The notes under the pieces are model-generated. The model was not told the DNA's origin. It worked only from the letters and a program-made list of their open reading frames with translations, and made no database searches. DNA of 64,000 bases, from assembly GCA_964543535.1 (NCBI GenBank), contig CAZIYS010000001.1, forward strand, positions 195,159-259,158, read 5' to 3'. This DNA comes from an uncultured Gammaproteobacteria bacterium (GTDB lineage: Bacteria; Patescibacteriota; Microgenomatia; UBA1406; GWC2-37-13). Below, one piece after another: positions 22,928 to 48,391 of the stretch. The position numbers and the translations under genes were made by a program. The stretch's first letter is position 1, and every line of letters starts with the position of its first letter.

Positions 22928-22960
22928 TCATTATTTAACCAAATTTGATAAAATTAGTCA

Positions 22961-23509: not shown

Positions 23510-23540
23510 CCTCATACAACTGACGCAGTTGTACAGGCTA
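23507..23540. repeat. palindromic element family I between convergent genes (bidirectional-terminator-like)
   Basis: tagcctcatacaactgacgcagttgtacaggcta. Related copy at 46714-46746. Confidence 0.7.
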
Positions 23541-24185: not shown

Positions 24186-24208
24186 TAGAGATAAATTATA
24201 ATATATTT

Positions 24209-24790
24209 ATGGAAAAAATTATCTCTGTTGATTATTTTATTACTAACTTAATAAATAAATTTTTTCCTCATAATATTTTTTTCGATTATTTTTTCTCTTT
24301 TTTTTCCTTAAAAGGTAGCTCAATTTTAATCTGGTTGTTGGTGATTTTGTTGTCAGTGATTTTGGAAGAACGAAAAAATCCCGGTGTCAACAAAAAGGAC
24401 AAAAAGTTTATTATCTTGTTTTCTGTTTCTTTTTTACTGACTTTCCTTTTTAGTGACGTTGTTCTAAAAAATCTTTTTCATCGCCCCCGCCCACAATTAA
24501 TTTCTACAAATTTCAATTTATTTCAATTTATTTCTAACTCTTGCCCAACCGATCTCTCCTTCCCCTCCACTCATGCCGCCACCGCTTTCGCGGCAGCAAC
24601 AGTTTTGACTTTTTTTGACAAAAAACGCCGTTGGTTTTATTACACCGTCGCCGTTTTAATTTCCTTTTCAAGAATTTACCTTGGTTGTCATTATTTTTTG
24701 GATGTCATCGCCGGAGCAATAATCGGATATATCATCAGTCAACTACTTCTATTCGTCCACGATACATTCCCATCCCGCAGGAAAAGTTGA
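24209..24790 (+). CDS. PAP2-family phosphatase
   Basis: RPRP...PSTHAATAFAAA...SRIYLGCHYFLDV acid-phosphatase motifs. Confidence 0.75.
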   Translation: MEKIISVDYFITNLINKFFPHNIFFDYFFSFFSLKGSSILIWLLVILLSVILEERKNPGVNKKDKKFIILFSVSFLLTFLFSDVVLKNLFHRPRPQLISTNFNLFQFISNSCPTDLSFPSTHAATAFAAATVLTFFDKKRRWFYYTVAVLISFSRIYLGCHYFLDVIAGAIIGYIISQLLLFVHDTFPSRRKS

Positions 24791-26048
24791 TGAAACCGGA
24801 GTCTTTCGGAGTAAACTCAAAAATATTTTCGCCTTCGTTTAAAGCTTTTTGAATCCCAAGCGAAGGAACGACAAAATAACCCTGGCAGCCAAAGACATTT
24901 TTCCCGTCAACAATCCATTTAACAGGAATTCTCTTTTTAACAATAAAATAATTGGGAACATAACCGCCGCTAACCACTGCCATATTGATAATTTGCTTGC
25001 CGTTTTCTATCTTTACGTTTGAAGCAGTTCCCTTGTTAATTTGATTGAAACCTAAATTAATCCCATAAATGGAAAGAAAATTTGCCGTATAATATAAGCC
25101 TAAAATCAAAACTCCAACCGCCATCACTTTCATAAAGTATTGATAGATTGTACTTTTTAGCAAACCTCTCAAATTACCGATGAATAAAATGGCCGGCGCT
25201 GTCCCGAGGGCAAAAACCGCCATGGTTAAAGCGCTCTGCCAAGGAGATGCTAAACCCAAAGCATAGACTTGCGTCGCCTGGGTAAAGCCACAAGGAAGAA
25301 AGTATGTAATCAATCCTAACAAAAAAGCTGATTTATGGGGATCTTTAATTAAGCGATTCTCCAACTTTCTGAAAACATTGGAAGAAACACCATAAGGAAT
25401 AATGGCGGCAAAAGAAACAATCTTTAACATATCCAGACCCAGAAGAATCATAAATACGGCTGCTAATAAAGTTAAAACCGATCCGAATTTAAAGTTAATG
25501 ATAATGACGCTGCCGATTAAACCGGCGATGAATCCGAAAAATCCGTAGGAAATAATCCTTCCCGAACTAAAATAAATTGCCTGTTTTAAATTATTGGTTT
25601 TTCTGCCGATTGTTGATAAAAATAGCGCTCCTGAAGTTGCCATGCAGGTAGAGATAGACGCCACTAGACCTAAAAACAAAATGGTTAATAAATTCAAATT
25701 GCCGGTAATATTAATAGCCGGAATAATATTAATTTCTTTGGCAATTAAATAAATTAAGACTAAACCTGCCGTGATTAAAACCGCTTCAAAAATCTTTTTA
25801 CCCAAGGGTTCTTTGTCTTCAATATCATTGTGCCGTTCCGTTATCTCATAACCAAACGGTCGAATTTTTTTATTAATGATGTCTTGATCCAAATGACCGG
25901 TAAAATAAACTTCTGCCTCCTGTTTATTAAAATTAGACTTCACTTCAGTAACATTAGGTACTTCTTTAAATTTATCGGTAATTAAGATCTCGCAGGAAGG
26001 ACAGTGCATTCCTTTGATATGAATGGTTTTTTTACTTATTTTAGGCAT
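24735..26048 (-). CDS. fusion protein: HMA metal-binding domain, polytopic membrane domain, C-terminal cupredoxin-like domain
   Basis: N-terminal GMHCPSC, about 7 TM segments, and C-terminal FSCGMGMYRG resembling ORF 37279..37632. Confidence 0.7.
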   Translation of the reverse strand: MPKISKKTIHIKGMHCPSCEILITDKFKEVPNVTEVKSNFNKQEAEVYFTGHLDQDIINKKIRPFGYEITERHNDIEDKEPLGKKIFEAVLITAGLVLIYLIAKEINIIPAINITGNLNLLTILFLGLVASISTCMATSGALFLSTIGRKTNNLKQAIYFSSGRIISYGFFGFIAGLIGSVIIINFKFGSVLTLLAAVFMILLGLDMLKIVSFAAIIPYGVSSNVFRKLENRLIKDPHKSAFLLGLITYFLPCGFTQATQVYALGLASPWQSALTMAVFALGTAPAILFIGNLRGLLKSTIYQYFMKVMAVGVLILGLYYTANFLSIYGINLGFNQINKGTASNVKIENGKQIINMAVVSGGYVPNYFIVKKRIPVKWIVDGKNVFGCQGYFVVPSLGIQKALNEGENIFEFTPKDSGFINFSCGMGMYRGRIEVVD

Positions 26049-26107
26049 AAAGAAAATTAAACCATTTTAAAAAAGATTTTGCAAATGAAGATACTTTTTA
26101 TTGCCAA

Positions 26108-26284
26108 TCAACAATTTTTTCCATCTTTATAGCACTTCATGCATAATCTCTCATTGCTGCAACTATAATCAGGCAGTTGTTGAAAAAGTTTTTCTATAAT
26201 TACATTTTTAATATTATTACCAAAAAACAACATAATAAAAATAGCCAATAATAGTATTCCTCCAATAATTAATTTGATCTTCAT
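26108..26284 (-). CDS. 58-aa membrane-anchored Cys-rich peptide (not in the ORF track)
   Basis: My own translation: MKIKLIIGGILLLAIFIMLFF...YSCSNERLCMKCYKDGKNC. ATGA overlap with the stop of the CcdA gene. Confidence 0.4.
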   Translation of the reverse strand: MKIKLIIGGILLLAIFIMLFFGNNIKNVIIEKLFQQLPDYSCSNERLCMKCYKDGKNC

Positions 26285-26889
26285 ATGTATCCCTGTAAAG
26301 AGAAATAGATAAGATAGACTGCCGCTGCCAACATTAATACCCCGCCAATTCTTTGAACTAATGTCATATGTCTCATTAATTTAAATTGAAAAACTTTATC
26401 GGTTATGATTAAACCAAACACAAAAAACGGGGTAATAAAACCAATCCCGTAAAAAATAATCATAAAAATCCCGTTGACCAAACTTCTTTGAGCAATAATA
26501 AATGTCAAAAGTGAAGCCAGTTGCGGACCAATACAACCTAAAATAACTGCACCGTAAAGGAGTCCGTCAATAAAGGCATGTGAATGTTTGTTAGGCTCTT
26601 GTATGTGAGGTAGTTCTAATTTAATGGCGCCCAACATCCCCAATCCTGAAATTAAGGTAACAATACCGGCTATAAAATAAAGATAGCGATTAACAGAATT
26701 AGTAAAAACAATACCGGTCAGAGAAGCAACGATTCCTAAAGAAATAAAAACAAGAAGCATTCCAGAAAAAAAATAGATTACCCCAATCAATGATTTTTTT
26801 ATTTTACTGAGAATTACCGGCACCATGATAAAGGTACAGGGGCCAACGATTGAAAGAATACCTAAAATAAATGCATAGAGATAGTTCAT
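26281..26889 (-). CDS. ccdA: CcdA/DsbD-family thiol:disulfide transmembrane electron transporter
   Basis: Six TM segments with one Cys in each half (GPCTF and GCIGPQ). Confidence 0.7.
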   Translation of the reverse strand: MNYLYAFILGILSIVGPCTFIMVPVILSKIKKSLIGVIYFFSGMLLVFISLGIVASLTGIVFTNSVNRYLYFIAGIVTLISGLGMLGAIKLELPHIQEPNKHSHAFIDGLLYGAVILGCIGPQLASLLTFIIAQRSLVNGIFMIIFYGIGFITPFFVFGLIITDKVFQFKLMRHMTLVQRIGGVLMLAAAVYLIYFSLQGYI

Positions 26890-26919
26890 CTTTGTATTTT
26901 ATTGGAAATTAATTATTAT

Positions 26920-26948
26920 CCCTCGACTCGTTTTACTCGCTCGGGATG
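26920..26948. repeat. GC-rich palindromic element family C, intergenic copy
   Basis: ccctcgactcg-ttttac-tcgctcgggatg. Related inverted copy at 39036-39064. Confidence 0.75.
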
Positions 26949-26958
26949 AAGATTAGGT

Positions 26959-27561
26959 TTATTTAAATCTAATCTTCACTTTTTTCCCTTTAAGATTGTC
27001 TTCATTTGCAGGTTTAAGATCTTCGTTTTTAAGACAGTAACCGGTGACATCGCAAATTATTTTGGCCAAATTTTCCTTGGAGATATATCCATCAACCGTA
27101 TATTCTTTCGAGTCTTTTTTTGTAGAAAATACAAAACCAGGAGTAAGACTTAATTTATATTTTTGCATGATGTCATTACAACTTTCCCGGGTATATTTTT
27201 CCAGTTTGAAAGCCTGGCCCTCTTTTTGCAAAAGCTCGTCCAAATGCTGATCTTCCAATATGCACCAAAAACAGACCGGAGAGTAAAAATATTTTATCGT
27301 TAAGTCTGCGTCAGGATTTCCCGCTTGCTCATCCGGACATTTGGATTCAAGCTTAATTTTTTTCGTAAACTCAGGTTTTAACTGTTGCTTTTTTAATATT
27401 AATAATTGTTTTTGAGAAATAATTAATTTTTTTTTATTAAAATTTATTAAATTCCTTAAAGCAATATTGGCAAAAATAAACAAAAAAATAATTAGCAAAC
27501 CGATTACCAACAAAAAATATCGTTTTTCATCCTTTTCAATAACAATTTTAGGAAAACTCAT
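26959..27561 (-). CDS. membrane-anchored thioredoxin-like protein (CxxC)
   Basis: N-terminal TM helix. CFWC motif after a beta-strand-like YFYSPV. Confidence 0.55.
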   Translation of the reverse strand: MSFPKIVIEKDEKRYFLLVIGLLIIFLFIFANIALRNLINFNKKKLIISQKQLLILKKQQLKPEFTKKIKLESKCPDEQAGNPDADLTIKYFYSPVCFWCILEDQHLDELLQKEGQAFKLEKYTRESCNDIMQKYKLSLTPGFVFSTKKDSKEYTVDGYISKENLAKIICDVTGYCLKNEDLKPANEDNLKGKKVKIRFK

Positions 27562-27562
27562 A

Positions 27563-27790
27563 TTAACAACCTCCCACCTGTTGGGGAATATCTTTTAAAG
27601 CTGCCGGTAAATTTGATTTACCTACTGAAGTAGTAGTCCCATCCGCTTGTTTCTTACCAAGAAGGCTTGTTAATACCACTGTTTGGATTACGGAAATGAA
27701 GACTAAAATTGACAAAAGTCCTAAAACAAGCATGTTAATATTAAAGCGAAAAGTTATCTGTTTGTTTTGACGTTTTAATTCTTCTACCAT
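27563..27790 (-). CDS. 75-aa single-TM protein ending in QQVGGC
   Basis: Strong SD (aaggaggtg) 7 nt upstream. One TM helix. C-terminal Cys is the last residue. Confidence 0.5.
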   Translation of the reverse strand: MVEELKRQNKQITFRFNINMLVLGLLSILVFISVIQTVVLTSLLGKKQADGTTTSVGKSNLPAALKDIPQQVGGC

Positions 27791-27889
27791 TATTTCTCAC
27801 CTCCTTTAGAGATTGTTTGCGAACTTATAATAGTGAGCATTACAATCTCTTAAGTCCTTCCGTAGCTAATTGAGCGAAGGAGGACTCCA

Positions 27890-28510
27890 TCATTTTCCAT
27901 TTTCCAACTGTTGTAACATCGATTGCTCTATACTAACTATTGACAGCCGTTCGCTCATCCAGTCATTAACGGAAACTGATTTCGGATCAGTACCTTTCGA
28001 TTGTAAATACGTTGCCGCAATCGCATAGTGTTTTGGCCACCAGAAGCGGTACCATAAGAATAATTCTTCCTTAATTTTTTTGTCATCCCATCCTTGAGTA
28101 ATAAGATATTTTGCTAGTCCCATAGCCGCCTGGGCATGAAGACAGTCTTTAGTGTCAATGGGAGCATCGCAACAGGGGTGAGGCAATTTACCTAAACTTT
28201 CCAGTCTCTTTTTCTGATCGGCCGTTAAGCTGGAATCAGCAATTTCTTTTTCCATCTCAATCATTTGCTGACCGTTGGTCTCAACATATTTACTTAAAGT
28301 CACCGGTTCATCTTTCCATTTATATGGTCTGACTTCATCTTTATCAGTTGGGAGAATATCGGTTGATCCACTGTTAACGGATGCAGCTGATAAAGTAATT
28401 GCTCCGGAAGACAAAGCGTAGATTACCTGGGTCAAAAGAATTTGTTTAACGGCTGTTACCAAAATTGCAATAATTAAAAAACTTTTTATTAATTTTGACT
28501 TGAATATCAT
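27890..28510 (-). CDS. secreted Cys-rich protein, P-C-C-D...D-C-x-H family (paralog 1), unknown function
   Basis: Signal-anchor N-terminus. PHPCCDAPIDTKDCLHAQA aligns with RPCCDNSTAFPDCNHGMA of ORF 37634..38563. Confidence 0.6.
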   Translation of the reverse strand: MIFKSKLIKSFLIIAILVTAVKQILLTQVIYALSSGAITLSAASVNSGSTDILPTDKDEVRPYKWKDEPVTLSKYVETNGQQMIEMEKEIADSSLTADQKKRLESLGKLPHPCCDAPIDTKDCLHAQAAMGLAKYLITQGWDDKKIKEELFLWYRFWWPKHYAIAATYLQSKGTDPKSVSVNDWMSERLSIVSIEQSMLQQLENGK

Positions 28511-28532
28511 AAGAAGTAATTTTACTCAAATA

Positions 28533-28554
28533 TTTATGAAGATTTTATGAAGAG
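28533..28554 (-). promoter_or_regulatory. direct-repeat box (TCTTCAT-N4-TCTTCAT), candidate response-regulator site
   Basis: atgaaga at 28536 and 28547 (11-bp period), 11 nt upstream of a TAAAAT -10 for the gene starting at 28510. Confidence 0.5.
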
Positions 28555-28615
28555 AAAATATAAAAACGACCCACCTTTGAATGGTTATAATCATTTACCG
28601 TAACAAAATTGATAA

Positions 28616-28891
28616 TTACTTTTTTGCAAAATAATTATATAAATTGGCAAAAAGATAGCCGACTAACCAGGTGCCGATCGTTGACGTTGTTAGTCCCAGG
28701 ACGAATGAACCTAATGACAGATTTAATTCAGAAATTTGGGTTAATTGAATACCATGGAACCACGACTGGGCAATCGTCATTGCCAGATCTGGGAAAAGAG
28801 CAACTCCTACACGACAAACAATATAAACTATGGCGACGGTTACTGCCGCCGCATTGGCTGTGGCTTTTGGATCATGTTTCATATTTTTCAC
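28616..28891 (-). CDS. small membrane protein, unknown function
   Basis: 91 aa with two hydrophobic helices and an SD-like aaggaggtg upstream. The plus-strand ORF 28609..28911 is judged to be an antisense artefact. Confidence 0.5.
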   Translation of the reverse strand: MKNMKHDPKATANAAAVTVAIVYIVCRVGVALFPDLAMTIAQSWFHGIQLTQISELNLSLGSFVLGLTTSTIGTWLVGYLFANLYNYFAKK

Positions 28892-28911
28892 CTCCTTTCA
28901 TATATTTATAA

Positions 28912-29391
28912 TTATAACTCCCATTTCAACTTCCTCTGCGAAACACCGCCAACATCTTTGATGATTAACTCAACGAACTTTGTTTCTGATAAGACTGTAT
29001 TAAAAGTCAAGGTTCCCTCTCGATGATGGCCGCCTGGAACAGTGCCTTTCCAATTCGAATTAGAGTAGATATTGCTTTTGTCATCAACAAATGAACTTAT
29101 CTGAGCTACATCAAATGCTAAATCCACCGAGTGAGTCTCAAATACAATGTTAAAACTTGGTTTTTCCCCGATTTTCAAAACTTTTGGCTTAACTTTTACT
29201 GTAACATTGCCGCCTTCATTTTCCTGAGAATTTAGATTTTCTTCCTGCTTACTAACACTGCTAACAGCTTTAATCCCGGCAGATTTTTTATCGGTTTTTT
29301 TGACGGCATTAATTCCCAAAAATAAAACTACGAAGACTAAAATTATTAGTAAAAAATTATTGATTTTTGACATGGGTTTTGATCTTAGCAA
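28912..29391 (-). CDS. membrane-anchored secreted protein with GGHH motif, unknown function
   Basis: N-terminal TM helix, beta-rich ectodomain, GTVPGGHHREG. Confidence 0.5.
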   Translation of the reverse strand: MLRSKPMSKINNFLLIILVFVVLFLGINAVKKTDKKSAGIKAVSSVSKQEENLNSQENEGGNVTVKVKPKVLKIGEKPSFNIVFETHSVDLAFDVAQISSFVDDKSNIYSNSNWKGTVPGGHHREGTLTFNTVLSETKFVELIIKDVGGVSQRKLKWEL

Positions 29392-29806
29392 TTGTTTTTA
29401 ACATATATAAAATCCCCAATAAGTTCATCGATATTCCGAAAATGATGATGGGAATTTGATATCTCGTCAGAAATATGGCAAAGCCTGATAGACCGATTAT
29501 GGGCAGAACTTCGCTTAGGTGATGTGCACAGCAGGCAATCATTGAGGCAGATGAAGTACCTGTAGAAGCGGCCGTGACGGCTCCGGCTTGATTTGTGACT
29601 GGCGAATGACTGATTAGCCTCTTCAACCGTGTAAATAAACCAATCTGAACTCCAAATCCTAAGGACAAAGTTATCATCCAATACCAGAGTTCTTTAAATT
29701 GGAAAATGGTGGCTGACCAACTTCTTGAAGCAAATGTCATCACTAAAAAATAAAAAAACAGCAGTCCGAAAAACCCGGCTAACCCGCTTAAAATTTCTTT
29801 TTTCAT
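29357..29806 (-). CDS. 4-TM membrane protein with intramembrane C-C-A-H-H motif
   Basis: SASMIACCAHHLSEVLP lies within a hydrophobic segment. Confidence 0.55.
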   Translation of the reverse strand: MKKEILSGLAGFFGLLFFYFLVMTFASRSWSATIFQFKELWYWMITLSLGFGVQIGLFTRLKRLISHSPVTNQAGAVTAASTGTSSASMIACCAHHLSEVLPIIGLSGFAIFLTRYQIPIIIFGISMNLLGILYMLKTIAKIKTHVKNQ

Positions 29807-29818
29807 AATCTTAATTAT

Positions 29819-29847
29819 ATGAAGACATTATTAAGAATTTATGAAGA
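29819..29847 (-). promoter_or_regulatory. triple direct-repeat box, candidate response-regulator site
   Basis: atgaaga (29819), attaaga (29830), atgaaga (29841): exact 11-bp period. The box abuts a TATAAT that lies 7 nt before the ATG at 29806. Confidence 0.55.
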
Positions 29848-29855
29848 ATGGAAGA

Positions 29856-30455
29856 TTAGAAAGTTCTTTTTTTATAGTCTAAGTAAGTCTTGCTAAATTT
29901 ATCTTCCATCTCCTTCTCTTCTTGTTTGGCCAAAATAAAATAACGGATAATCAAGATCGGCGCCATAAGAAGAGTAATTAAGGTTGGCCATTGGAGAAGA
30001 AAACCAATAATAATCAGAATAAAACCAATGTATTGAGGGTGGCGGACATATTTATAGACACCGGTTGTTGCCAAAATATTTTCTTTTTGCGCTTTGTATA
30101 AGACTTCCCAGGCAGTGGCAATGAGAACTAAACCGCCAATAATTAAGCCATTACTAATTAGATGAAGATAGTTAAAATGCGGATCTCCGGAAATATTCAG
30201 AAGTTTATTCAATACGTGGCCTGAATCGTGAGAAAAATCAATATTAAAAAATTTGTTACCAAACCACGAAGTTAACAGATAAATAGTTAAGGGAAATCCA
30301 TACATCTCGGCAAAAAGAGCGACTATAAATGCGGAAAACGTCTGATAAGTCCGCCAATCGGTTTTACTGCGGGGCTTAAAAGCCGATTTTAGAAACACTA
30401 AAAAAATGACTATGCTAATTATGACAAGAAACCAGTTTCCATACTCGTATTTCAT
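29856..30455 (-). CDS. isoprenylcysteine carboxyl methyltransferase (ICMT/PEMT) family membrane methyltransferase
   Basis: VYKYVRHPQYIGFILIIIGFLL motif. Confidence 0.75.
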   Translation of the reverse strand: MKYEYGNWFLVIISIVIFLVFLKSAFKPRSKTDWRTYQTFSAFIVALFAEMYGFPLTIYLLTSWFGNKFFNIDFSHDSGHVLNKLLNISGDPHFNYLHLISNGLIIGGLVLIATAWEVLYKAQKENILATTGVYKYVRHPQYIGFILIIIGFLLQWPTLITLLMAPILIIRYFILAKQEEKEMEDKFSKTYLDYKKRTF

Positions 30456-30496
30456 AGTTCGATAAACTCACTATAACCCTGAGCAAAGTCGAAGGG

Positions 30497-30763
30497 TCAT
30501 AATGACAAAATCTTGCTGATGAACTTCTTTTTATCCAGAGTACCGCTAGAAAAAAGTTTTCCGTTGATGATAATTCCCGGGTTGGATAAAACCGAATGTT
30601 CAACGGCCAGATCTAAACCCTTTGCAGTGATGATATTAATTTTTTCAATATGTAGTTTAAGATAAGAAAATTCTTTTTTGACTTCCTGGAATATGATTTT
30701 AGCCCGCTCACATTCCGTACACCCGGGAGCAGTCAAAAACTGGACTTGAATTACCGGTTTCAT
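30497..30763 (-). CDS. small thioredoxin-fold protein (glutaredoxin-like, CxxC)
   Basis: 88 aa with TAPGCTECE motif. Confidence 0.7.
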   Translation of the reverse strand: MKPVIQVQFLTAPGCTECERAKIIFQEVKKEFSYLKLHIEKINIITAKGLDLAVEHSVLSNPGIIINGKLFSSGTLDKKKFISKILSL

Positions 30764-31458
30764 GGATTATTTTTTGGGTTCTGTAATTGATCAATATGAC
30801 TTAAAAGAACATTGGCCGGGACATTCATGTTGGGAAAATCAGCTGATGAATGTATTTTCCCATCCGGAGTAATATGAATATAGGTATGGCCAGCCCGATC
30901 GTCATGCATTGATGAAGGTGTACCTAAGGCTTTATATGCTTTTGTTACTTTCCGGTCGGCATCAATAAGAATCGGAGTAGTAATTCTTTCTTCTTTAAGA
31001 ATTGGGTTCCAGGTTGCCTGATCATCCACGCTAACCGGAATAATTATTGTATTCAATTTCTCAAAATCATTCTTAAACCGTTCCAACCGAGATATTTCCT
31101 GCCAGCAAGGAGCACACATCACTCCTTCGTTAAAAAAAAGAAAAATATTTTTTCCTTTATATTCTGATAGTGAAATTGTTTTTCCTGATGTTGAGGGAAG
31201 ACTGAAATCTGGAGCTATTGTTCCAGGGGCGAGTGGTACAAATTTTTTATTGCTTGCGGCTCCTCCCCCGCCATGATGATCAGCCATCGGATCGGCAGCG
31301 GCAACCTGTTTATTATCAGCTTTGACTTGATTTTTACTGCTGGCCATCGAATACCCGACCACAACCGTCATAATAATAAGAATAATAAGGGCATAGGTTA
31401 ATATTTTATCCTTTGATAACGAAAAAACAACCTGATCTGTATCTGTAATATCTTTCAT
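30760..31458 (-). CDS. membrane-anchored redoxin (AhpC/TSA / ResA-like thiol-disulfide oxidoreductase)
   Basis: TM anchor. FFNEGVMCAPCWQE CxxC block in a thioredoxin fold. Confidence 0.75.
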   Translation of the reverse strand: MKDITDTDQVVFSLSKDKILTYALIILIIMTVVVGYSMASSKNQVKADNKQVAAADPMADHHGGGGAASNKKFVPLAPGTIAPDFSLPSTSGKTISLSEYKGKNIFLFFNEGVMCAPCWQEISRLERFKNDFEKLNTIIIPVSVDDQATWNPILKEERITTPILIDADRKVTKAYKALGTPSSMHDDRAGHTYIHITPDGKIHSSADFPNMNVPANVLLSHIDQLQNPKNNP

Positions 31459-31482
31459 ATCTCTATTTATATACTTTTAATA

Positions 31483-31500
31483 ATTAAGATTTTATTAAGG
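31483..31500 (-). promoter_or_regulatory. direct-repeat box, candidate response-regulator site
   Basis: attaaga (31483) and attaagg (31494), 11-bp period, upstream of a TATA-rich -10 and the ATG at 31458. Confidence 0.45.
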
Positions 31501-31508
31501 GCTCGTTC

Positions 31509-31579
31509 GTCCCGCTTAGCGGGACGATTACGGCCCTTTATGCCGCATCCTTAAAGATCGTATTATTAGCGGATGCGGC
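31509..31579 (-). terminator. two GC-rich hairpins directly after the CcdA-like gene stop
   Basis: gccgcatcc...ggatgcggc (9-bp stem) abuts the stop codon. It is followed by gtcccgc-tta-gcgggac. Confidence 0.5.
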
Positions 31580-32428
31580 TTAAGACTGCCGGGATTTTCC
31601 TTTAAGAAAAAATCCTATGCCAATTAATATAATGATTAACAGAAATATCCAGTCCGGCACTCCGCCAGTCAAATTTAAAATTTTTCTTTGCATTAAAGTC
31701 ATCGTCGCCACTAACCGTGTTTGCGAAGGAGTGATCGATGTTATCTGATTGGTCGTTGCCAGATAAAGAATATAAATCCCGATTATTAAAAAAACCATAC
31801 CGGTTATAAGATTGGTCGAATGAATCATTAACTGTCTATTAAAAACTTTAAACCGGAAAGTAAATCCCCTGACAAACCGGCTTTCTGAAAAGTTAAAGCT
31901 TTCCCAAAAAAAAGCGAGAATGAAAAGAGGAAAAACCATACCAAAGACATAGACTAAAGACAGAATCAAGGCCTGAAAAGTACTCGCTGAAAGAGCAGTC
32001 AACGTTAATACTCCAGCCAAAACCGGCGCACAGCAGGATGAGGCTAAGCCGGAAAATAGACCCAGTCCAAAGACAGAAAAGACATCATGCTTTTTTAAGA
32101 GCGGGGCGGTTTTGAAAGGCGGGTTGAATTTTTTTCCGGAAAAAGAAAGCAGCGCCAATAAAATCATAAAAACTCCGCCTAAATAAAAAACCTGGGTATG
32201 ATAATTCTTAAAGAGCGAGCTTAAAAATGAAACGCCTAAACCGATCGGTACTAAAATAGCGGCTACTCCCAAGAAAAAAACAAAGGTCATCAAAAGAATC
32301 GCCTTCTTTTGTTTGAAAGTATAGGCAAAATAGGCAGGGAGCATAAAAGTTATACAACAAGGGGCAAACAGAGCTAACATTCCTCCTAAAAACGAGGCAA
32401 TAATTGAGGTTTCAAATAAAATATTCAT
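31580..32428 (-). CDS. CcdA-like membrane protein with vicinal Cys-Cys in both halves (copy 1)
   Basis: LFAPCCITFMLPAY and SSCCAPVLAG. Paralog of ORF 38560..39393. Confidence 0.7.
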   Translation of the reverse strand: MNILFETSIIASFLGGMLALFAPCCITFMLPAYFAYTFKQKKAILLMTFVFFLGVAAILVPIGLGVSFLSSLFKNYHTQVFYLGGVFMILLALLSFSGKKFNPPFKTAPLLKKHDVFSVFGLGLFSGLASSCCAPVLAGVLTLTALSASTFQALILSLVYVFGMVFPLFILAFFWESFNFSESRFVRGFTFRFKVFNRQLMIHSTNLITGMVFLIIGIYILYLATTNQITSITPSQTRLVATMTLMQRKILNLTGGVPDWIFLLIIILIGIGFFLKGKSRQS

Positions 32429-32560
32429 TTAATGACAACTTTTTTTTGAATTTTTATCATTATCACCACCATGACCACCATGGTTTCTCATCATAATTAT
32501 ATGAATAAGCGGACATAACAGTAATATTGCGTAGGGAAGGATGCTTTTTATAATATCCAT
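32429..32560 (-). CDS. 43-aa DUF2933-like membrane peptide (not in the ORF track)
   Basis: My own translation: MDIIKSILPYAILLLCPLIHIIMMRNHGGHGGDNDKNSKKSCH. Its stop is immediately followed by the ATG of the next gene. Confidence 0.55.
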   Translation of the reverse strand: MDIIKSILPYAILLLCPLIHIIMMRNHGGHGGDNDKNSKKSCH

Positions 32561-32583
32561 AGCCCAAGAATACCTGATTGGTT

Positions 32584-32601
32584 ATTAAGAAATTATGAAG
32601 A
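32584..32601 (-). promoter_or_regulatory. direct-repeat box, candidate response-regulator site
   Basis: attaaga (32584) and atgaaga (32595), 11-bp period. Overlaps the kinase stop codon, upstream of the ATG at 32560. Confidence 0.45.
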
Positions 32602-33600
32602 AACAAGAGGCAGGCTGATCGTAAAAACAGTCTTTTTGCCGACTTTGCTTTTTACTTCTATCTCTCCCCGATGAGAGTTAACTATGGCTTTAGCAATCGC
32701 CAGTCCTAATCCCGACCCGAGGGTCTTTTCTCCGGAGGATCCCCGGTAAAAACGGTCAAAAATACGGGAGATATCTTTTTGAGATATGCCTACACCATTA
32801 TCTTTTATTTCTATAATTGCCTGATATTTATTCTTCTTAAGAACGATTTCAACTTTGTCTTTTGTAGGAGTGTATTTGATCGCATTATCAATAATATTTA
32901 AGAGTGCCCGTCCCAGCTTTTCTTTAAAACCAATAATTTCGATGTTTTTATCAAAAGAACCGGAGACTTTAATATTTTTCTTTAGAGCCATTTTCTGAGC
33001 CAGTTCAAATAATTCTTCCATTAGTTCACTGAGATTAAATGAAATAGCATTTTTTTGTTCCATCGGTGTCTCCGACCAGGCCAGATCCAGAACATTTTTT
33101 AACGTCGTTGAGACGCGGTGAGTTTCTTGAACTGCCTCTTTAAGAGTTTGGCGGTATTCATCTTCGGTTCTTTTTTGATTCAAAGCGATTTCTAGAGTAC
33201 TTCGTAACGTTGATAAAGGTGTTTTCAGTTCATGAGCCACATCGGCAATAAACTGTTGTTCGCGCTTAAAAGCAAAATGCAGGCGATCAAGCAGTTGGTT
33301 GAATGTCTGTGCAAGTTCACCGATCTCATCGCGACTGTCAATTCCGTCAACCCTCTCATCAAGATTTTTACTGGAAATCATTCGCATCCGCGAGGATAGA
33401 TAGGTAAGGGATTCGGTGATTTTATAGATGATAATAAAACCAAATAGAGCCAAAGTTAAAAAAAGAAGCAGAATAAAATAAAAACCGTTTTTAAAAGCAA
33501 ACACGTGGACAACTAAAACAATAAATATTCCTAACAAAGCAAGGCTGCCTATATACCAAAAAAAAAGTTTTTTTATTAAACTGTCAACCGGCTTTCTCAT
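32593..33600 (-). CDS. sensor histidine kinase (HAMP-HisKA-HATPase; CusS/CopS-like architecture)
   Basis: H-box ADVAHELKTPL, N-box IIDNAIKYT, G-box GSGLGLAIAK. Two N-terminal TM helices. Confidence 0.85.
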   Translation of the reverse strand: MRKPVDSLIKKLFFWYIGSLALLGIFIVLVVHVFAFKNGFYFILLLFLTLALFGFIIIYKITESLTYLSSRMRMISSKNLDERVDGIDSRDEIGELAQTFNQLLDRLHFAFKREQQFIADVAHELKTPLSTLRSTLEIALNQKRTEDEYRQTLKEAVQETHRVSTTLKNVLDLAWSETPMEQKNAISFNLSELMEELFELAQKMALKKNIKVSGSFDKNIEIIGFKEKLGRALLNIIDNAIKYTPTKDKVEIVLKKNKYQAIIEIKDNGVGISQKDISRIFDRFYRGSSGEKTLGSGLGLAIAKAIVNSHRGEIEVKSKVGKKTVFTISLPLVSS

Positions 33601-33602
33601 CT

Positions 33603-34274
33603 TTATTTTTTGCCAATTTTATAACCGACCCCGTGGACGGTCTGGATTAATTTATTTTTAAATCCGGAGTCGACTTTCTTCCTTAAAGTAGCCACAAAAA
33701 CGTCAACCACATTAGACAGTGCATCGAAGTTATAGTCCCAGACATGTTCGGTAATCTGGGTTCGGGTGACTACTTCACCCTGATGTCTTAGTAAAAATTC
33801 AAGAATAGAAAATTCCTTGGGAGTTAAAAAAATTATTTTATTGCCTCTTTTAGCAGTATGCTTAACCGGATCAACTTCCAAATCCTCAACCTGAAGAGTG
33901 GTTTGCGTTTGATTATGACTGCGGCGAAGAAGAGCTTGAAGGCGGGCTTTCAGTTCGGTAAAAGCAAATGGTTTGGTGAGATAGTCATCAGCACCAACAT
34001 TTAAGCCTTCGACTTTATCTTCAACCGTGGTTTTGGCGGTTAACATAAGAATGGGTGTAGTAATTTTTTTATTTCTCAAGCTCCGGCAAACATCCAGTCC
34101 GTTAATTTTAGGCAGCATGACATCAAGAATGATTAGGTCATAACTTTCTGATTCAGCTAAATACTGTCCTTCTTCTCCGTCAAATGCCTGGTCGACGGCA
34201 AATCCTTCCTCAATCAATCCTTTTCTGACAATATTAGAAAGTTTTCGCTCGTCCTCAATAATTAAGATTCTCAT
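33603..34274 (-). CDS. OmpR/PhoB-family response regulator
   Basis: Receiver domain DLIILDVMLP...LTAK and a winged-helix C-terminus. ATG at 34274 is preferred over the track's TTG at 34280. Confidence 0.9.
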   Translation of the reverse strand: MRILIIEDERKLSNIVRKGLIEEGFAVDQAFDGEEGQYLAESESYDLIILDVMLPKINGLDVCRSLRNKKITTPILMLTAKTTVEDKVEGLNVGADDYLTKPFAFTELKARLQALLRRSHNQTQTTLQVEDLEVDPVKHTAKRGNKIIFLTPKEFSILEFLLRHQGEVVTRTQITEHVWDYNFDALSNVVDVFVATLRKKVDSGFKNKLIQTVHGVGYKIGKK

Positions 34275-34285
34275 AGGCAAATGAT

Positions 34286-34315
34286 ATTATAGCTAATATG
34301 AAGATATCATTAAGT
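34286..34315 (-). promoter_or_regulatory. autoregulatory promoter: direct-repeat box plus TATAAT
   Basis: atgaaga (34298) and attaagt (34309), 11-bp period, 6 nt upstream of TATAAT (34286-34291). Confidence 0.5.
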
Positions 34316-34370
34316 TTTAAAGTTATATCTTAATTAAACCTTCACAAACTGATTGCTATTATTTTTACAT

Positions 34371-34532
34371 ATGGAGGATAAATTTTCAAAGTTTTCATTA
34401 TATGTTTTTATTACTGGAGTCATTATTGCTTTGTATGTTTTAATTAACTCTCTTCTTCATACCTCAATTGGCTCAAAGATTGTCAATCCACCGCCTGCCT
34501 CACAATTTATGGGACCAAATGCCAAAGAATAA
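34371..34532 (+). CDS. possible 53-aa single-TM protein on the opposite strand (not in the ORF track)
   Basis: MEDKFSKFSLYVFITGVIIALYVLINSLL... fills an otherwise unexplained 254-bp gap. TTAAAC-17-TATTAT lies 8 nt upstream. No SD. Confidence 0.3.
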   Translation: MEDKFSKFSLYVFITGVIIALYVLINSLLHTSIGSKIVNPPPASQFMGPNAKE

Positions 34533-34534
34533 AT

Positions 34535-34882
34535 TTAGGGAAGAAGAAATCCTCCTTTATAACCGGGAATCCACCAGGGAATAAAGACGTAGATCATAAA
34601 AGCAATACGAAAGATAATAGAAAATACTACGTAAAAAATAATTAAAAGCAAGTGGTCTCTTATGTTCTTATGTCCCTTTTTCTCACAACATCTTCCGTAA
34701 TATTGATACAAAAAAAAGAAAAGCCCTCCCACAAGAAGAAGCGGGAGAAGAAAAATTTTCTTATCCCCCTCTTGACGAACCAACAAAAGATAACCGGAAG
34801 CGGCAAGAAAAATAATCAGGCCGCCACAACAAACAAGATGGAACAAAAAAAACGGCACCACTGACCCAATAAACTTTTTCAT
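34535..34882 (-). CDS. MerF/MerT-like small membrane protein with two vicinal Cys-Cys pairs
   Basis: HLVCCGG lies in TM1 and GRCCEKKGH in a loop. The layout resembles mercury/metal uptake proteins. Confidence 0.5.
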   Translation of the reverse strand: MKKFIGSVVPFFLFHLVCCGGLIIFLAASGYLLLVRQEGDKKIFLLPLLLVGGLFFFLYQYYGRCCEKKGHKNIRDHLLLIIFYVVFSIIFRIAFMIYVFIPWWIPGYKGGFLLP

Positions 34883-34924
34883 TTTTTCTTTCCGCCACCG
34901 TGACAGCCTTCGTGTTTCATAGGT

Positions 34925-37165
34925 TTATATTTTTGCTTTTTTTAGAAAAAGCGAATTTGTAACTACTGAAATGCTAGAAATTGCCATTGCTCCTGAGGCT
35001 AAAATCGGACTAATCCACCCCATCATGGCCACCGGTATCAAAACTACATTATACGCGAAAGCCCAAAATAAATTAAGCTTAATTGTTTTCATTGTTTGTT
35101 TGGATAATTTAATCGCCGAAACCACTGACATTAAATTTTTATTAACTAAGGTAATCCCGGCCGCTTCAATCGCAACGTCGGTGCCGCTTCCCATAGCAAT
35201 CCCGATGTCAGCGGAGGCAAGCGCCGGCGCATCATTAATTCCGTCTCCGATCATAGCAACTATTTTTCCTTGTAATTGAATCTTTTTTACTTCTTTTTCT
35301 TTGTCCTGTGGCAAAACTTCGGCTAAAACGTTTTCTTTTTTAATCCCAACTTGATTAGCAATTGCTATTGCTGTTTGATTGTTGTCTCCGGTAATCATAA
35401 ATATCTCAATCTCTAAATCTCTCAATCTCTGAATTGCTTCTTTAGCCGTTTCTTTAATCGTATCGGCAATGGCAATTGCGCCTACTAATTTTTCATCTAT
35501 ATAAACATAAACTACGGTTTTGCCTTGATTTTTTAGTTTTTGAGCCTGGTCACCCTTAGGGTGTTCAGCCACGAGTTTACCTACATAAATCTTTTTTCCG
35601 TTGATCATCCCTTCAACACTTTGACCGGTAATTGATTTAAACTTAGAGACTTTAATTAATTGAAGTTTTTCTTCTTGCGCTTTATTAACAATTGCTTCGC
35701 CCAAAGGATGCTCGGAATTTTTTTCGACAGATGCGGATAGAGTTAAAAGCGAAGATATTAAATTTTTTGCGGTTTGTGGTTTTCCGTCAAAAAATTTCGA
35801 TATCGAGCTTTTATTTATCACAATAATGTCTGTCACTTCTGGTTTGCCTTTCGTCAATGTCCCTGTCTTGTCAAAAATTATTGCTTTGATTTTATGGGCA
35901 GTTTCCAAGCTCTCAGCATCTTTAATTAATATTCCATGTTGAGCCCCGATTCCTGTTCCAACCATAATCGCAGTCGGGGTTGCCAGTCCCATTGCGCAAG
36001 GACAGGCAATAATTAAAACGGCAATCGAGTTAAGCATTGCCAAAATGAATCCGCCGGCTGACGGCCCAAAAACATACCAACCAACAAATGTTGAGATAGC
36101 CAACATTATCACAATAGGAACAAAATAAGAAGAAATAATATCGGCCAATCTTTGAATTGGGGCTTTGCTTCCCTGTGCTTCTTCAACCATTTTAATAATT
36201 TGGGAAAGCATGGTATCTTTACCGACTTTAGTGGCTTTATAAACAAAACTTCCCGATTTGTTCATCGTCGCTCCAATTACCATATCTCCTTTATATTTTG
36301 AAGCGGGCATGCTTTCACCAGTCACCATCGACTCATCAATTGCTGATTCTCCTTCAATAATGACTCCGTCAACAGGAATTTTTTCTCCCGGTCGAACCCT
36401 GATTAAATCACCAGCAACAACCGCATCAATTGAAATATCGATTTCTTTTTTATTTCGAATTACTCGAGCAGTTTTTGCCTGAAGGCCGATTAATTTTTTA
36501 ATCGCTTCTCCTGTCCCGGCTTTAGCTTGAGCTTCCAAGAACCGGCCCAACAAAATCAAACCAATAATAACTGTTGAGACGTCAAAATACGGTTCGGTTT
36601 TTAAATTTAGTCTTTCAAAAAAACCAGGAAAAAATACTACTGCGGCAGAATAAAGATAAGCTACCGTTGTTCCAATCACTACCAAAGTATCCATGTTGGC
36701 AAGGCGGTGTTTTAAAGAAGAAATCGCCGCTTTGTAAAAATCATAAGCTCCCCAAAACTGGACAATTGACGCCAGGAAAAAATGATAGAACATGTTTTTT
36801 AAGATATTTGGAGCCGTATTCAAAAGCCCTGGAAAACTCCCCCAAACGACTAAGCCAGCTAAAATTAGGCTGACAGTAGTTTTAATCTGGAGGTCTTTCA
36901 ATTCTTTTTCCTTTTCTTCTTTGATCTTCTCATCCAATGAATCTTCCTCGTGGGTTTCATCTAACATCGCTTCGTAACCAACACTTTCTACTGCACTTTT
37001 TATAGCATCATTTCCAATTGGCATAGCCGCAGTTATAGTGGCTTTGCCAGTATTCAAATTAACAACCGCTTCAGTAACTCCGGGAATTGCTTTTAATGCT
37101 TTCTCATTGGAATAAACGCACGAAGCACAGTGCATGCCTTTAATGGCAAAAGTTTGTTTATTCAT
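34925..37165 (-). CDS. copA: copper-translocating P1B-type ATPase
   Basis: N-terminal [37 protein letters not shown]. Confidence 0.95.
35745..35812. repeat. AT-rich hairpin element family E, in-frame copy inside copA
   Basis: Differs by only a few bases from 37175-37240. Translated as [23 protein letters not shown] between DKTGT and SEHPL. Confidence 0.85.
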
Positions 37166-37174
37166 ATGTTTTTC

Positions 37175-37240
37175 AAAGCGAAGATATCAAATTTTTTGCG
37201 GTTTTTTGTTTTCCGTCAAAAAATTTCGATATCGAGCTTT
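37175..37240. repeat. AT-rich hairpin element family E, copy in the copA upstream region
   Basis: aaagcgaagatatcaaattttttgcgg...ccgtcaaaaaatttcgatatcgagcttt. The arms are self-complementary. Confidence 0.85.
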
Positions 37241-37278
37241 AAATAACCCGTTAACATGTTAACTCGTTAACCAAATAA

Positions 37279-37632
37279 CTATTTAATAATTAGTTTGCCG
37301 TGGAACATACCCATGGCACAGGAAAAATCAAACTCCCCTTTTTTATCGGGGGTGATTTCAACAGTTACTTTCTCATTCAGAGGTAATGATTTTTTAATTT
37401 TAAAGTCGGCAAAAATCACTTCTTCCAAACAACTATTACTGTCTTTTCTTTGAAAAACTAGTTTTGTTGTTTTCCCATATGGAATTGCAATCCTTTCCGG
37501 TTTATAACCACCATCAACTAAGATATCAATTCTTCCTTCTGCTTGAATTGTATTAACTTTTTTCATAAAAAAGAACCAATAAGTAAATATTATGCCTAAG
37601 ATGCCAGAAACAGCAACAATTATTTTATCCAT
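37279..37632 (-). CDS. membrane-anchored cupredoxin-like domain protein
   Basis: TM anchor and FSCAMGMFHGKLIIK C-terminus. Same motif as the C-terminus of ORF 24735..26048. Confidence 0.65.
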   Translation of the reverse strand: MDKIIVAVSGILGIIFTYWFFFMKKVNTIQAEGRIDILVDGGYKPERIAIPYGKTTKLVFQRKDSNSCLEEVIFADFKIKKSLPLNEKVTVEITPDKKGEFDFSCAMGMFHGKLIIK

Positions 37633-37633: not shown

Positions 37634-38563
37634 TTAAACCCCGCATCCTCCTCCGGTTTTTGGCGGCTGTTCGACTATTCCTTTATTAATTAACCACTGT
37701 TTAGCCGCTTGCCAACCTGAGGAAGAAGAAAATTCTTTACCTAATATTATCTGGGCTGGAACCTGGCTAAATTTTTTCCCTTCCTTATTTTTAAAGTATA
37801 ACGCCAAATCATAGTAATTACTTGGGAACCAAAATGCATTAAAGTATTTGGCCGCTTCAAACATCTGATTTTCCGTGGCATTATTTCCTGCCATCAACTG
37901 TAACACTGCCAGTAACGCCATTCCGTGGTTGCAGTCCGGAAAAGCAGTCGAATTATCACAACAAGGACGATAGATATTGCCAGCTACTTTTGCCACTAAC
38001 GCCTGTTGTTGATCGTTTAATGAAATCAGGCTTTCTTTTGAAAAATAATTCATTGGGTCACCGGCCGCCAAGCTCCAGCCACCGGTTGAGGCAAAATTAC
38101 CAACCTTGCCTTCACCGTACTTAACAATATCGCCTTCATCTAAAACCTTTGATTTATTGTTTAAACCAACGGCCCAGAAAAAGTTGAGCAAAAAATAAGA
38201 ATTGTCACGATCTATCTTGATTTTTTTATCTGATCCTTTAGTCAAAATTTCCAGCTGCTCTTTAGTTAACGGCTGAGCGCTCTTTTCATATGTCTGTTTA
38301 AACTTTTCCAGATCAATCACTCCGGAAGCAACCATTTTAGGCCCTAAATCGTCATATTTCGCATTAATCTCAAAGCCTTTTTCCGGATTAATTTCATCAA
38401 ATAAATTTGCCGTTTCTTTTTTCGCGGCAGTTTCTTTGCTTTTTGAGATTAACTTATTAACCTGCGGCTTTAACACATAGGCTAAAGCTAAAATATTTAA
38501 CCCCAAACTCAATCCCAAAACAATAAGCCAAAGATTTTTGGCTGGTTTTTTTGTTCTTTTCAT
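37634..38563 (-). CDS. secreted Cys-rich protein, P-C-C-D...D-C-x-H family (paralog 2), ends in GGGCGV
   Basis: Signal anchor. YRPCCDNSTAFPDCNHG. ATGA overlap with the upstream CcdA-like gene. Confidence 0.6.
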   Translation of the reverse strand: MKRTKKPAKNLWLIVLGLSLGLNILALAYVLKPQVNKLISKSKETAAKKETANLFDEINPEKGFEINAKYDDLGPKMVASGVIDLEKFKQTYEKSAQPLTKEQLEILTKGSDKKIKIDRDNSYFLLNFFWAVGLNNKSKVLDEGDIVKYGEGKVGNFASTGGWSLAAGDPMNYFSKESLISLNDQQQALVAKVAGNIYRPCCDNSTAFPDCNHGMALLAVLQLMAGNNATENQMFEAAKYFNAFWFPSNYYDLALYFKNKEGKKFSQVPAQIILGKEFSSSSGWQAAKQWLINKGIVEQPPKTGGGCGV

Positions 38564-39393
38564 TTTTTTTTAATTAATTTATAAAAAATAAAAATAATAA
38601 AACTGAAAATTAATAAATCGATGATCGGATTTTGAAAATATTTGGAGATATTAAAAACCATCAGCCGTAAAGGTTTAGTATAAACTTCCATCTGATACAT
38701 CTGGATCTTATTGTAATAATTAAAAATAATAATCAAAACTCCGGAGATGATAAAAATTCCTGCTCCTAAAGCCTGAAAGATTTTGTAGATTTTTTCCCGA
38801 TTAGAACCGGAAATTTTATTGGTTAGTTTATTGTAGAAAAGAGACAGAATAAAAAGCGGGAAAACTATCCCCAATACATAAGCTAAAGAGACAATTAAGG
38901 CCTGAAATAAAGTCGGTGATAAACTGGTCAGAGTGACGGCCGCAAACAAAACCGGCGCGCAACAGGAAGAAGAAAGCCCTGACATTACCCCTAAACTAAA
39001 CACCGAAAATATATTTATTTTTTCTCCCCCCTTGTCATCCCGAGCGAGCGGAGCGAGTCGAGGGAGCTTAAAAAGTTGGGGGAAATGAAAGATTGGTTTA
39101 ATCGTCATAAATCCCATAAAAATCAAAAACAATCCTCCAAAATAATAAATTTGCTTATGCCAACTGTCAAAAAAGAAGATAAAAAATCTAAATCCCAAAG
39201 CGACCGGAATTAAGATTATCGATAAACCCAGTGCAAATACCAAGGTATAAAACATTACTTTTGTTCCGCTTTTGAAAACCGTTCCCAGATAAGAAGGAAA
39301 TAAAAATGTGATACAGCATGGGGCAAACAAAGCCAAGACTCCGGCCAAAAACGAAGCGGTCAAGGAAATGCCGAAGAAAAAGTTGCTATTCAT
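38560..39393 (-). CDS. CcdA-like membrane protein with vicinal Cys-Cys in both halves (copy 2)
   Basis: LFAPCCITFLFPSY and SSCCAPVLFA. Carries the family C repeat in a loop. Confidence 0.7.
   Translation of the reverse strand: MNSNFFFGISLTASFLAGVLALFAPCCITFLFPSYLGTVFKSGTKVMFYTLVFALGLSIILIPVALGFRFFIFFFDSWHKQIYYFGGLFLIFMGFMTIKPIFHFPQLFKLPRLAPLARDDKGGEKINIFSVFSLGVMSGLSSSCCAPVLFAAVTLTSLSPTLFQALIVSLAYVLGIVFPLFILSLFYNKLTNKISGSNREKIYKIFQALGAGIFIISGVLIIIFNYYNKIQMYQMEVYTKPLRLMVFNISKYFQNPIIDLLIFSFIIFIFYKLIKKK
39036..39064. repeat. GC-rich palindromic element family C, in-frame copy inside a CDS
   Basis: catcccgagcgag-cggag-cgagtcgaggg, translated as part of PRLAPLARDD. The paralog at 31580..32428 lacks these residues. 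Confidence 0.75.
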
Positions 39394-39999: not shown

Positions 40000-40046
40000 A
40001 TGCTATATTTCGTACGGAACAAAAATTTTTGTTCCCTACAATTTAA

Positions 40047-48276: not shown

Positions 48277-48324
48277 TTGTTAGAAACTTATAATAGTACA
48301 CGCCAAAACAAATAACAAATTGTA

Positions 48325-48391
48325 ATGACTCGGCAACGCAAATTTTTCACAAAACCTACAAAAGTGAAAAATTTGCTTTTGCCTGCGTCAT
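48325..48391. repeat. long imperfect hairpin in the nadB/nadA divergent region
   Basis: atgactcggcaacgcaaatttttcac / gtgaaaaatttgcttttgcctgcgtcat. Followed at 48396-48432 by a partial family E-like segment. Confidence 0.6.

Follow-up and report, generated by a model that had tools for sequence, protein, structure and literature searches.

A palindromic repeat family carried in frame by copA and other genes of Roizmanbacteria-like Patescibacteria

We analyzed a 64,000-nt stretch of a metagenome-assembled genome (assembly GCA_964543535.1, contig CAZIYS010000001.1, positions 195,159 to 259,158; this whole stretch is called the window below) in which a short hairpin repeat lies inside copA, the gene for a Cu(I) P1B-type ATPase. 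The window is A+T-rich, at 27-41% G+C. The source names of the top CopA homologues are Patescibacteria, 'Candidatus Roizmanbacteria' or near it, and the host lineage is described as an ultra-small groundwater bacterium, a Roizmanbacteria-like member of the Patescibacteria, or candidate phyla radiation (CPR). An initial annotation of the window had reported a ~67-bp hairpin repeat in frame in copA, a near-identical copy upstream of the gene, further copies near 17554-17624 and 18699-18765, and a partial copy at 48396-48432. We recovered all of these, together with additional members. copA and the repeats of this family in the window are as follows, with scores in bits from the covariance model described below.

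34925-37165, minus strand: copA, Cu(I) P1B-type ATPase of 746 aa; Pfam domains HMA, E1-E2_ATPase and Hydrolase in homologues; match to PDB 3J09 with E 9e-169.
35744-35812, minus strand: in-frame element copy in copA, coding for K452-L474; covariance match at 35742-35815 (plus strand), 95.1 bits; fold of -23.6 kcal/mol, z -4.9.
37175-37240, plus strand: intergenic copy, 10 nt upstream of the copA start codon; 95.0 bits.
17556-17622, plus strand: intergenic copy between carB (14232-17453) and carA (17628-18689); 95.1 bits.
18699-18765, minus strand: intergenic copy between carA and pyrB (18839-19792), in the opposite orientation (reverse complement) and more diverged; 75 bits.
17459-17547, minus strand: long variant of the hairpin family, ~89 nt, with a centre richer in G+C; 32.8 bits; holds the inverted-repeat arm 17479-17527.
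18765-18851, plus strand: second long variant of the family, ~87 nt; 29.9 bits; holds the inverted-repeat arm 18784-18832.
48321-48395, minus strand: degenerate full family hairpin between a nadB-like open reading frame (ORF; 46759-48276) and the ORF at 48594-49538; 34.1 bits.
48396-48432, plus strand: left-arm fragment (AAAAGCGAGGCGCTTAATTTTTTGCGAC...) without a matching right arm, adjoining the 48321-48395 hairpin; 70% identity over 37 nt.

The two copies at copA are 94% identical across 69 nt (35743-35811 against 37172-37240). The internal copy reads AAAAGCGAAGATATTAAATTTTTTGCGG-loop-CCGTCAAAAAATTTCGATATCGAGCTTTT on the plus strand, and the upstream copy occupies a 113-nt gap between the cupredoxin gene (37279-37632) and copA. 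Each full copy in the window folds into a hairpin of ~24 pairs at -21 to -24 kcal/mol (z -4.9 to -6.8), and none of 200 shuffles folded as well. Searches of the window with either half of the element, tolerating up to 3 mismatches, turned up only the sites already reported, and 100 shuffles predicted 0.00 chance matches. Each of the two long variants contains one arm of a perfect 49-nt inverted repeat (17479-17527 and 18784-18832). Family copies adjoin carA in relatives too (loci L007, L003 and L062), and two longer variants occupy the sites in L013 and L064 that are orthologous to the degenerate hairpin at 48321-48395.

Two features of these neighborhoods were noted in passing. carA is flanked by mirror-image element pairs, each consisting of a long variant and a 66-nt copy (17459-17626 and 18697-18851). 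This arrangement could permit carA to invert or be the trace of recent conversion. At copA, the cupredoxin stop codon and the upstream element are separated by 37 extra nt (37241-37278; GGTTAACGAGTTAACATGTTAACGG) in which the GTTAAC motif occurs three times. This segment might be an operator-like repeat, and it is missing in L114, whose same junction contains the element. The copA strand of the element also contains a weak sigma-70-like match (37191-37219 and 35762-35790; TTGACG, 17 nt, AAAAAT; 9/12) that lies, in the upstream copy, ~26 nt before the copA ATG. The regional count of such matches is not above that in shuffles.

We determined the extent of the family with a covariance model that was trained on 10 element copies and applied to a total of 1.07 Mb of Patescibacteria DNA, made up of the window and 132 further loci. 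The scan gave at least 180 non-overlapping matches, at least 168 of them unique. A strict element pattern yielded 6 loci from GTDB species genomes, and a looser pattern applied to metagenomes was far more productive. The metagenome loci are among the matches listed for the looser pattern, and the family copy numbers are lower bounds. Four pattern matches (L041, L086, L092 and L099) were discarded as chance; the covariance model does not recognize them. Two element-bearing contigs, L001 (CAZJKY010000034.1) and L003 (CAYHOJ010000012.1), belong to bins labelled 'uncultured Gammaproteobacteria'. L003 matches the carB of the window (77% over 3.2 kb), and both contigs are probably mis-binned or mislabelled Patescibacteria DNA.

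The family consists of short, A+T-rich (22-33% G+C), imperfectly palindromic repeats of 66 to ~100 nt. Most copies are intergenic, and they are often grouped, with two or three different variants adjacent to each other. Family-wide conservation spans AAAAGCG to AGCTTTT and ends there, following the pattern AAAAGCG.AGATA ... TATC[GA]AGCTTTT. The centre is variable, with an 11-nt A/T loop at one extreme and G+C-rich extensions of ~40 nt at the other, and an asymmetric internal loop of the hairpin (GAA/GA) is conserved. The apical pair is G/C, A/T or T/A, which divides the copies into three discrete subfamilies (GCGG/CCGTC, ACGG/CCGTT and TCGG/CCGAT). In 76 distinct copies of the 66-nt class, 98.2% of cells are paired, compared with 40-58% in slid controls. 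Nine pairs have compensatory alterations on both sides, a double change is present in 71 cells, and 0 of 500 shuffles came up to these figures or to the observed pairing.

We compared the hairpin to known RNA elements. Only three tRNAs passed the gathering threshold in an Rfam scan of the window, which gave no match to the element, and a permissive Rfam scan of 17400-18900 returned sub-threshold microRNA-precursor look-alikes only. An intrinsic terminator was not supported either: a simple scan of 17400-37300 found 20 terminator-like sites with no copy among them, and the stem is A/U-rich with an 11-nt loop. A kink-turn reading of the GAA/GA internal loop was rejected by inspection, since the register that it needs would disrupt the remaining stem.

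The copy inside copA interrupts an otherwise intact protein. The HMA domain and the TGES, CPC, DKTGT, SEHP and GDGINDAP motifs are all present, and the insert (K452-L474) lies between DKTGT (432-436) and SEHP (484-487), where the initial annotation had placed it. An HMMER alignment to CopA of Archaeoglobus fulgidus (PDB 3J09) leaves a 16-residue gap opposite the insert. In many Roizmanbacteria orthologues, P0039 among them, the linker is of native length (...DIISNIKNKNELIQLAAS) and carries no insert. The same insert, KFF[DI]GK..., is found in 13 CopA homologues, and others contain short remnants (NKSSIS-SLL, NKSSIPGGESSLL), longer variants (EARQRNFLSQWGPLHPKSEKNLISTLL) or quite different inserts. 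DKTGT and SEHP lie 34 to 70 residues apart in those of 120 CopA homologues that yielded both motifs. These comparisons bear out the expectation that the extra segment is lineage-specific and that the site tolerates length variation. The insert states are interspersed on a neighbor-joining tree computed with the insert region masked, a tree too weak for independent gains to be counted and possibly distorted by recombination.

The DNA of the orthologues points to decay and diversity of the inserts at this site. In copA of P0007/L008, a deletion of 45 nt between two ATATC repeats has left the outer stem alone. The family model does not match the inserts of P0036 and P0050, yet these form strong hairpins (-37 and -34 kcal/mol). 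Where the insert is absent, the site is extremely A+T-rich. Because scars, longer variants and unrelated hairpins occur there in other lineages, the CopA loop is an insertion hot spot. Low-complexity inserts such as SNIKDQISKIQIKNQ and FPISNFQFSKKE were also seen in this loop (P0024, P0033, P0038, P0032, P0073 and P0094). They look like translated A/T-rich tandem repeats, and the DNA repeats at 3266, 23374 and 58391 of the window may be related to them.

We examined the insert in an AlphaFold2 model of CopA built from 69 homologues, with a mean predicted local distance difference test score (pLDDT) of 77.7. In the model, residues 438-449 form a strand and 452-458 a short helix; after a loop (459-465), a second helix (466-481) runs into the first helix of the nucleotide-binding (N) domain. 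The pLDDT is 70 and 67 across the insert, compared with 83 and 88 on its flanks. The insert is thus predicted, at lower confidence, to form a helix-loop-helix bulge in the loop that opens the N domain, and the 3' arm of the element (AKNLISSLL) would supply the N-terminal turns of the native first N-domain helix. For this reason the net gain is ~16 residues rather than 22. The alignment agrees, in that outer-stem codons fill positions held by native residues in insert-free orthologues.

That overlap (NKSSIS ... SSLL) would also be expected if the segment were native to CopA and the intergenic copies were fragments copied from copA. A homologous peptide in CopA proteins of unrelated lineages had been named in advance as the observation that would point to such an origin, but Archaeoglobus CopA lacks the segment, as do many Roizmanbacteria CopAs. 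Elements with the same ends occur at ~140 places between genes and within no fewer than 12 other proteins, in three frames and both orientations, and those ends are set by conservation across the family, not by copA. With at least 168 unique and mostly intergenic copies, this is a dispersed hairpin family, and we consider its derivation from copA extremely unlikely. The metagenomic origin of the assembly calls for one further check, namely whether the insert arose as an assembly or binning artefact or the similarity by chance. The same in-frame CopA insert is present in independent assemblies from NCBI, ENA, JGI and Logan, zero chance matches are expected, and the ORF and all CopA motifs are intact. 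The probability of an artefact is negligible.

We asked which other genes contain the element. A copy was scored as genic if it lay inside a long ORF with at least 40 aa on either side and was open in the host frame. This criterion gave 29 unique copies, and 28 after the removal of L018, in which the element really lies upstream of the uvrB start. The hosts are CopA and at least 12 other protein families, which are unrelated and otherwise intact:

CopA: this window and several loci.
IleRS: identified by Pfam.
TatD: identified by Pfam; three full copies and a scar at one shared site.
Tgt: identified by Pfam; three copies in one gene (L057 6016-7332), one of them a 42-nt scar.
NAD synthase (NadE): identified by Pfam.
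Class I Trp/Tyr-type tRNA synthetase: identified by Pfam.
Major facilitator superfamily (MFS) transporter (L082): identified by Pfam.
Radical-SAM/UPF0004 MiaB-like enzyme: identified by Pfam.
MurD-like ligase: identified by Pfam.
LepA/EF4: identified by PDB; two copies in one gene (L119 428-2410).
QueA-like protein: identified by motif only.
Two proteins without a Pfam match: no identity assigned.

The host Pfam domains extend on both sides of the insert. When compared with solved homologues, the element appears as an unaligned extra of 28 residues in LepA and 15 in TatD. The sites of the two LepA copies in L119 hold scars or full copies in contigs L081 and L100. CopA and TatD are each seen with two versions of the insert, one of which reads FFIGKQQTEKN, and the versions match two of the intergenic stem subfamilies. 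The in-frame behavior that the initial annotation had likened to that of Rickettsia elements is therefore not confined to copA. Database searches with the encoded peptides gave little. Joining three element-encoded peptides in a protein-database search returned 11 candidates with shared words, none of which scored. HMMER with a 32-aa insert peptide against 1.84 billion representatives gave 3 weak, low-identity, repetitive matches, a result that says little, probably owing to the shortness of the query and the clustering of the library at 50% identity.

Three reading frames are in use. The commonest is hydrophilic (K[SA][SR]I.KFF.GK...NL[IV]SSL) and is the one found in soluble enzymes, and a hydrophobic frame is used in the membrane-like ORF of L053/L066. 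The MFS transporter of L082 also uses this hydrophobic frame, but its copy is a long variant with a more hydrophilic centre. Although ORFs cover ~92% of the sampled DNA, no more than 28 of the 168 copies are genic (p = 7e-125). This depletion indicates that coding insertions are mostly purged and that the survivors are in frame.

Genic copies could in principle go untranslated, either cut from the mRNA or bypassed by the ribosome. Bypassing is known from gene 60 of phage T4 and from the mitochondrial 'byp' hairpin inserts of Magnusiomyces, and both the very stable hairpin within a coding region and a nucleotide conservation beyond the needs of the peptide would fit it. However, all genic copies are open in the host frame, although openness was demanded for their detection. 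Compensating 1-nt indels hold the frame, such that the same DNA encodes KSSISKFF in one case and KARYQKFF in another. The length difference between scars and full copies is a multiple of 3 nt, as in the 45-nt deletion, and the hydrophobic frame occurs in the membrane-like ORF while soluble enzymes have the hydrophilic one. This pattern of frames, scars and hydrophobicity is expected only if the peptide is made, which renders an untranslated element very unlikely.

Taken together, the copA feature is probably one member of a palindromic-repeat family that is dispersed in Roizmanbacteria-like Patescibacteria and behaves like the Rickettsia palindromic elements (RPEs). The element is repetitive and forms a covarying hairpin, it is present in frame in many unrelated proteins, and it is lineage-specific, located in a loop, reduced to scars at some sites and depleted from coding DNA. 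Its presence also varies between genomes. The copy upstream of copA is found in the window, L070 and L114 and is absent from L009-L012 and L133, where the cupredoxin gene abuts or overlaps copA.

We propose that the insert is near-neutral or selfish hairpin DNA that an organism with a small genome would tolerate in its essential genes. The family would spread by transposition or by copy-to-copy conversion. A minority of copies survives in genes; these lie in frame, contain no stops and fall in loops that tolerate extra residues. On the simplest reading of the sequences, the genic copies would be translated as part of their host proteins. The CopA copy would add the modelled bulge, with its NLISSLL arm taking over the start of the first N-domain helix and the catalytic motifs spared. 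Copies decay through internal deletion to outer-stem scars, and lineages differ in the subfamily found at one protein site.

Several results weigh against this proposal. Copies are kept at orthologous sites between genomes that are ~77-82% identical in DNA. The sites are copA, the two flanks of carA (window, L003, L007 and L062) and the nadB downstream spacer (window, L013 and L064), although the subfamily at one orthologous site differs between genomes. At third-codon positions, six copA orthologues show an identity of 0.78-0.96 within the element, compared with 0.43-0.62 outside it in the flanks. When the window is compared with L007, whose CopA is 73% identical, 2 of 75 nt differ at the element and nearly all flanking synonymous sites differ. 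The orientation of copies relative to transcription is biased, at 49:19 between co-directional genes (p = 3.6e-4) and 24:4 for genic copies. Because of this third-position conservation, orthologous persistence and orientation bias, the data suggest either that sequence or structure is under selection or that conversion between copies, or re-insertion into existing ones, is frequent, rather than simple junk DNA. We also found no transposase and no longer parent element with the same ends in the 1.07 Mb, and no paired orphan ends 0.5-3 kb apart in the flanks of the small copies; the parent-element scan gave scattered single arm matches only. Neither the flank logos nor the comparison of filled and empty sites revealed a consistent target-site direct repeat, and the flanks are A/T-rich.

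Selection of this kind would be expected if the hairpin were chiefly a functional nucleic-acid module, such as an RNA processing or stability site, an attenuator or a protein-binding site, with genic copies tolerated or put to use. A functional role is compatible with mobility, as in repetitive extragenic palindromic (REP), enterobacterial repetitive intergenic consensus (ERIC) and Correia elements. It would account for conservation that outdoes copA synonymous sites, for copies kept at orthologous positions across species, for strong pairing with compensatory changes and for the significant strand bias. The asymmetric internal loop is retained although arm-to-arm correction would be expected to erase it, and elements often lie between genes of one operon (pyrB-carA-carB and cupredoxin-copA). 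In contrast, a signal for processing or termination would do harm within coding sequences, and at least 13 unrelated ones contain copies. Decay has reduced many copies to scars, orthologous operons function in the absence of the copy, Rfam has no such family, and the simple terminator scan flagged no element. We regard a primarily functional module as rather unlikely.

We compared the RPE-like family to other mobile palindromes. The ten types of RPE (RPE-1 to RPE-10; Ogata et al. 2000, Science 290:347, and 2002, Genome Res 12:808; summarized in PMC10969869) provide the closest parallel in behavior, and we claim no homology. Like RPEs, the element is a dispersed palindrome present in intergenic DNA and in frame in many unrelated housekeeping genes, is open across its length at fold-compatible positions, occurs in a small-genome, host-dependent lineage and has no known transposase. 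Our data contain the traits that define this behavioral class, namely a multi-copy palindrome in intergenic and coding DNA, stop-free genic copies in frame and a lineage-specific loop insert. The differences are in size (66 to ~100 nt, compared with ~100-150 bp for RPEs) and in host phylum (Patescibacteria/CPR rather than Alphaproteobacteria). In addition, the copies described here are still mutually very similar, form near-perfect hairpins and are conserved beyond synonymous sites, and one protein loop holds different subfamilies and scars depending on the lineage.

MITEs, the miniature transposable elements with inverted repeats, form a second group for comparison. Bacterial MITEs able to fuse in frame with host ORFs include intragenic ERIC, Correia, Anabaena MITEs and Coxiella QMITE1 (PMC10969869). 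Both they and our element are small, non-autonomous and A+T-rich, carry terminal inverted repeats, are occasionally intragenic with open frames and vary in presence at orthologous sites. The element resembles a MITE in its size, in its inverted repeats (which make up the whole 66-100 nt) and in its presence/absence pattern, but the scan of the 1.07 Mb turned up no parent insertion sequence that shares its ends. The genic fraction (~17% of copies) and the range of essential hosts are far above those usual for MITEs outside Rickettsia.

REP and REPIN elements, which are mobilized by REP-associated tyrosine transposases (RAYTs; Y1/HUH), and clusters of bacterial interspersed mosaic elements (BIMEs) form a third group. 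They share with our family imperfect hairpins with a conserved asymmetric feature, a mostly extragenic location, strand bias and adjacent clusters of differently oriented units, seen here at the carA flanks of the window and in L013, L033 and L101. REPs are 20-40 nt long and G+C-rich, with a GTAG or CGTC tag (PMC3733652). The element described here is at least 66 nt long, A+T-rich and begins with AAAAGCG, and thus departs from REPs in length, composition and tag. Coding palindromes are also reported in the mitochondrial genes of Nematomorpha, as inverted repeats in organelle protein-coding genes (PMC6649704). In both systems, long inverted repeats lie in protein-coding genes with both arms read as translated, and the family in Patescibacteria differs in adding ~140 intergenic copies.

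The window contains further in-frame repeats of other kinds. A different small palindrome, GTAAGGAACAAAAATTTTTGTTCCTTAC, lies at 16005-16038, where it is in frame in carB (14232-17453, minus strand) as SSVRNKNFCSLQ; a second copy, 91% complementary, is intergenic at 40008-40041. A G+C-rich repeat at 39035-39065 is read in frame as LPRLAPLARDD in a CcdA/DsbD-like ORF (38560-39393, minus strand), with an intergenic partner at 26919-26949. A similar peptide, ATLPLVARDD, fills the CopA hot spot in P0015 and P0021. A third repeat is in frame in two genes, at 47093-47133 in the nadB-like ORF (46759-48276, minus strand) and at 58225-58265 in a 968-aa ORF (57822-60728, plus strand). It is read on opposite strands as TPLRPSGFEGQGKN and DPTSPFGLRGASNK, and its arms are 90% complementary.

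The CopA N-domain hinge holds at least four element types across lineages. We tentatively raise a broader, rather unlikely reading, in which a hairpin superfamily pervades the coding sequences of Microgenomates-type CPR bacteria. Such a superfamily would not be inert. Its elements would move into the same loops of essential proteins again and again, replace one another there and leave, under nucleotide-level constraint and with a transcription-strand bias. If this were true, it would imply either a mechanism of insertion or conversion that targets hairpins, or a function at the level of RNA or DNA, and repeats would be the source of some of the unusual length and divergence seen in CPR proteins.

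To our knowledge, in-frame palindromic repeats in essential genes have so far been regarded as peculiar to Rickettsia. A review of MITEs from 2024 goes no further than to call similar in-frame behavior elsewhere 'conceivable' (PMC10969869). Our literature search, whose coverage was incomplete, found no report of such elements in CPR/Patescibacteria, and this is absence of evidence only. The repeats thus apparently constitute a new element family with a known kind of behavior, in a lineage where that behavior had not been described before, and the unexplained conservation and strand bias leave room for more than RPE-like behavior. The CPR would represent an independent second case in bacteria that also have small genomes and are probably host-dependent. 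This makes it possible to test whether weak selection in reduced genomes lets selfish hairpins colonize proteins. The inserts inflate the apparent length and divergence of CPR proteins and disturb alignments, phylogenies and structure predictions, and they could act as lineage markers. Hot spots with full copies, scars and swapped subfamilies are natural experiments on the uptake of random peptides by proteins.

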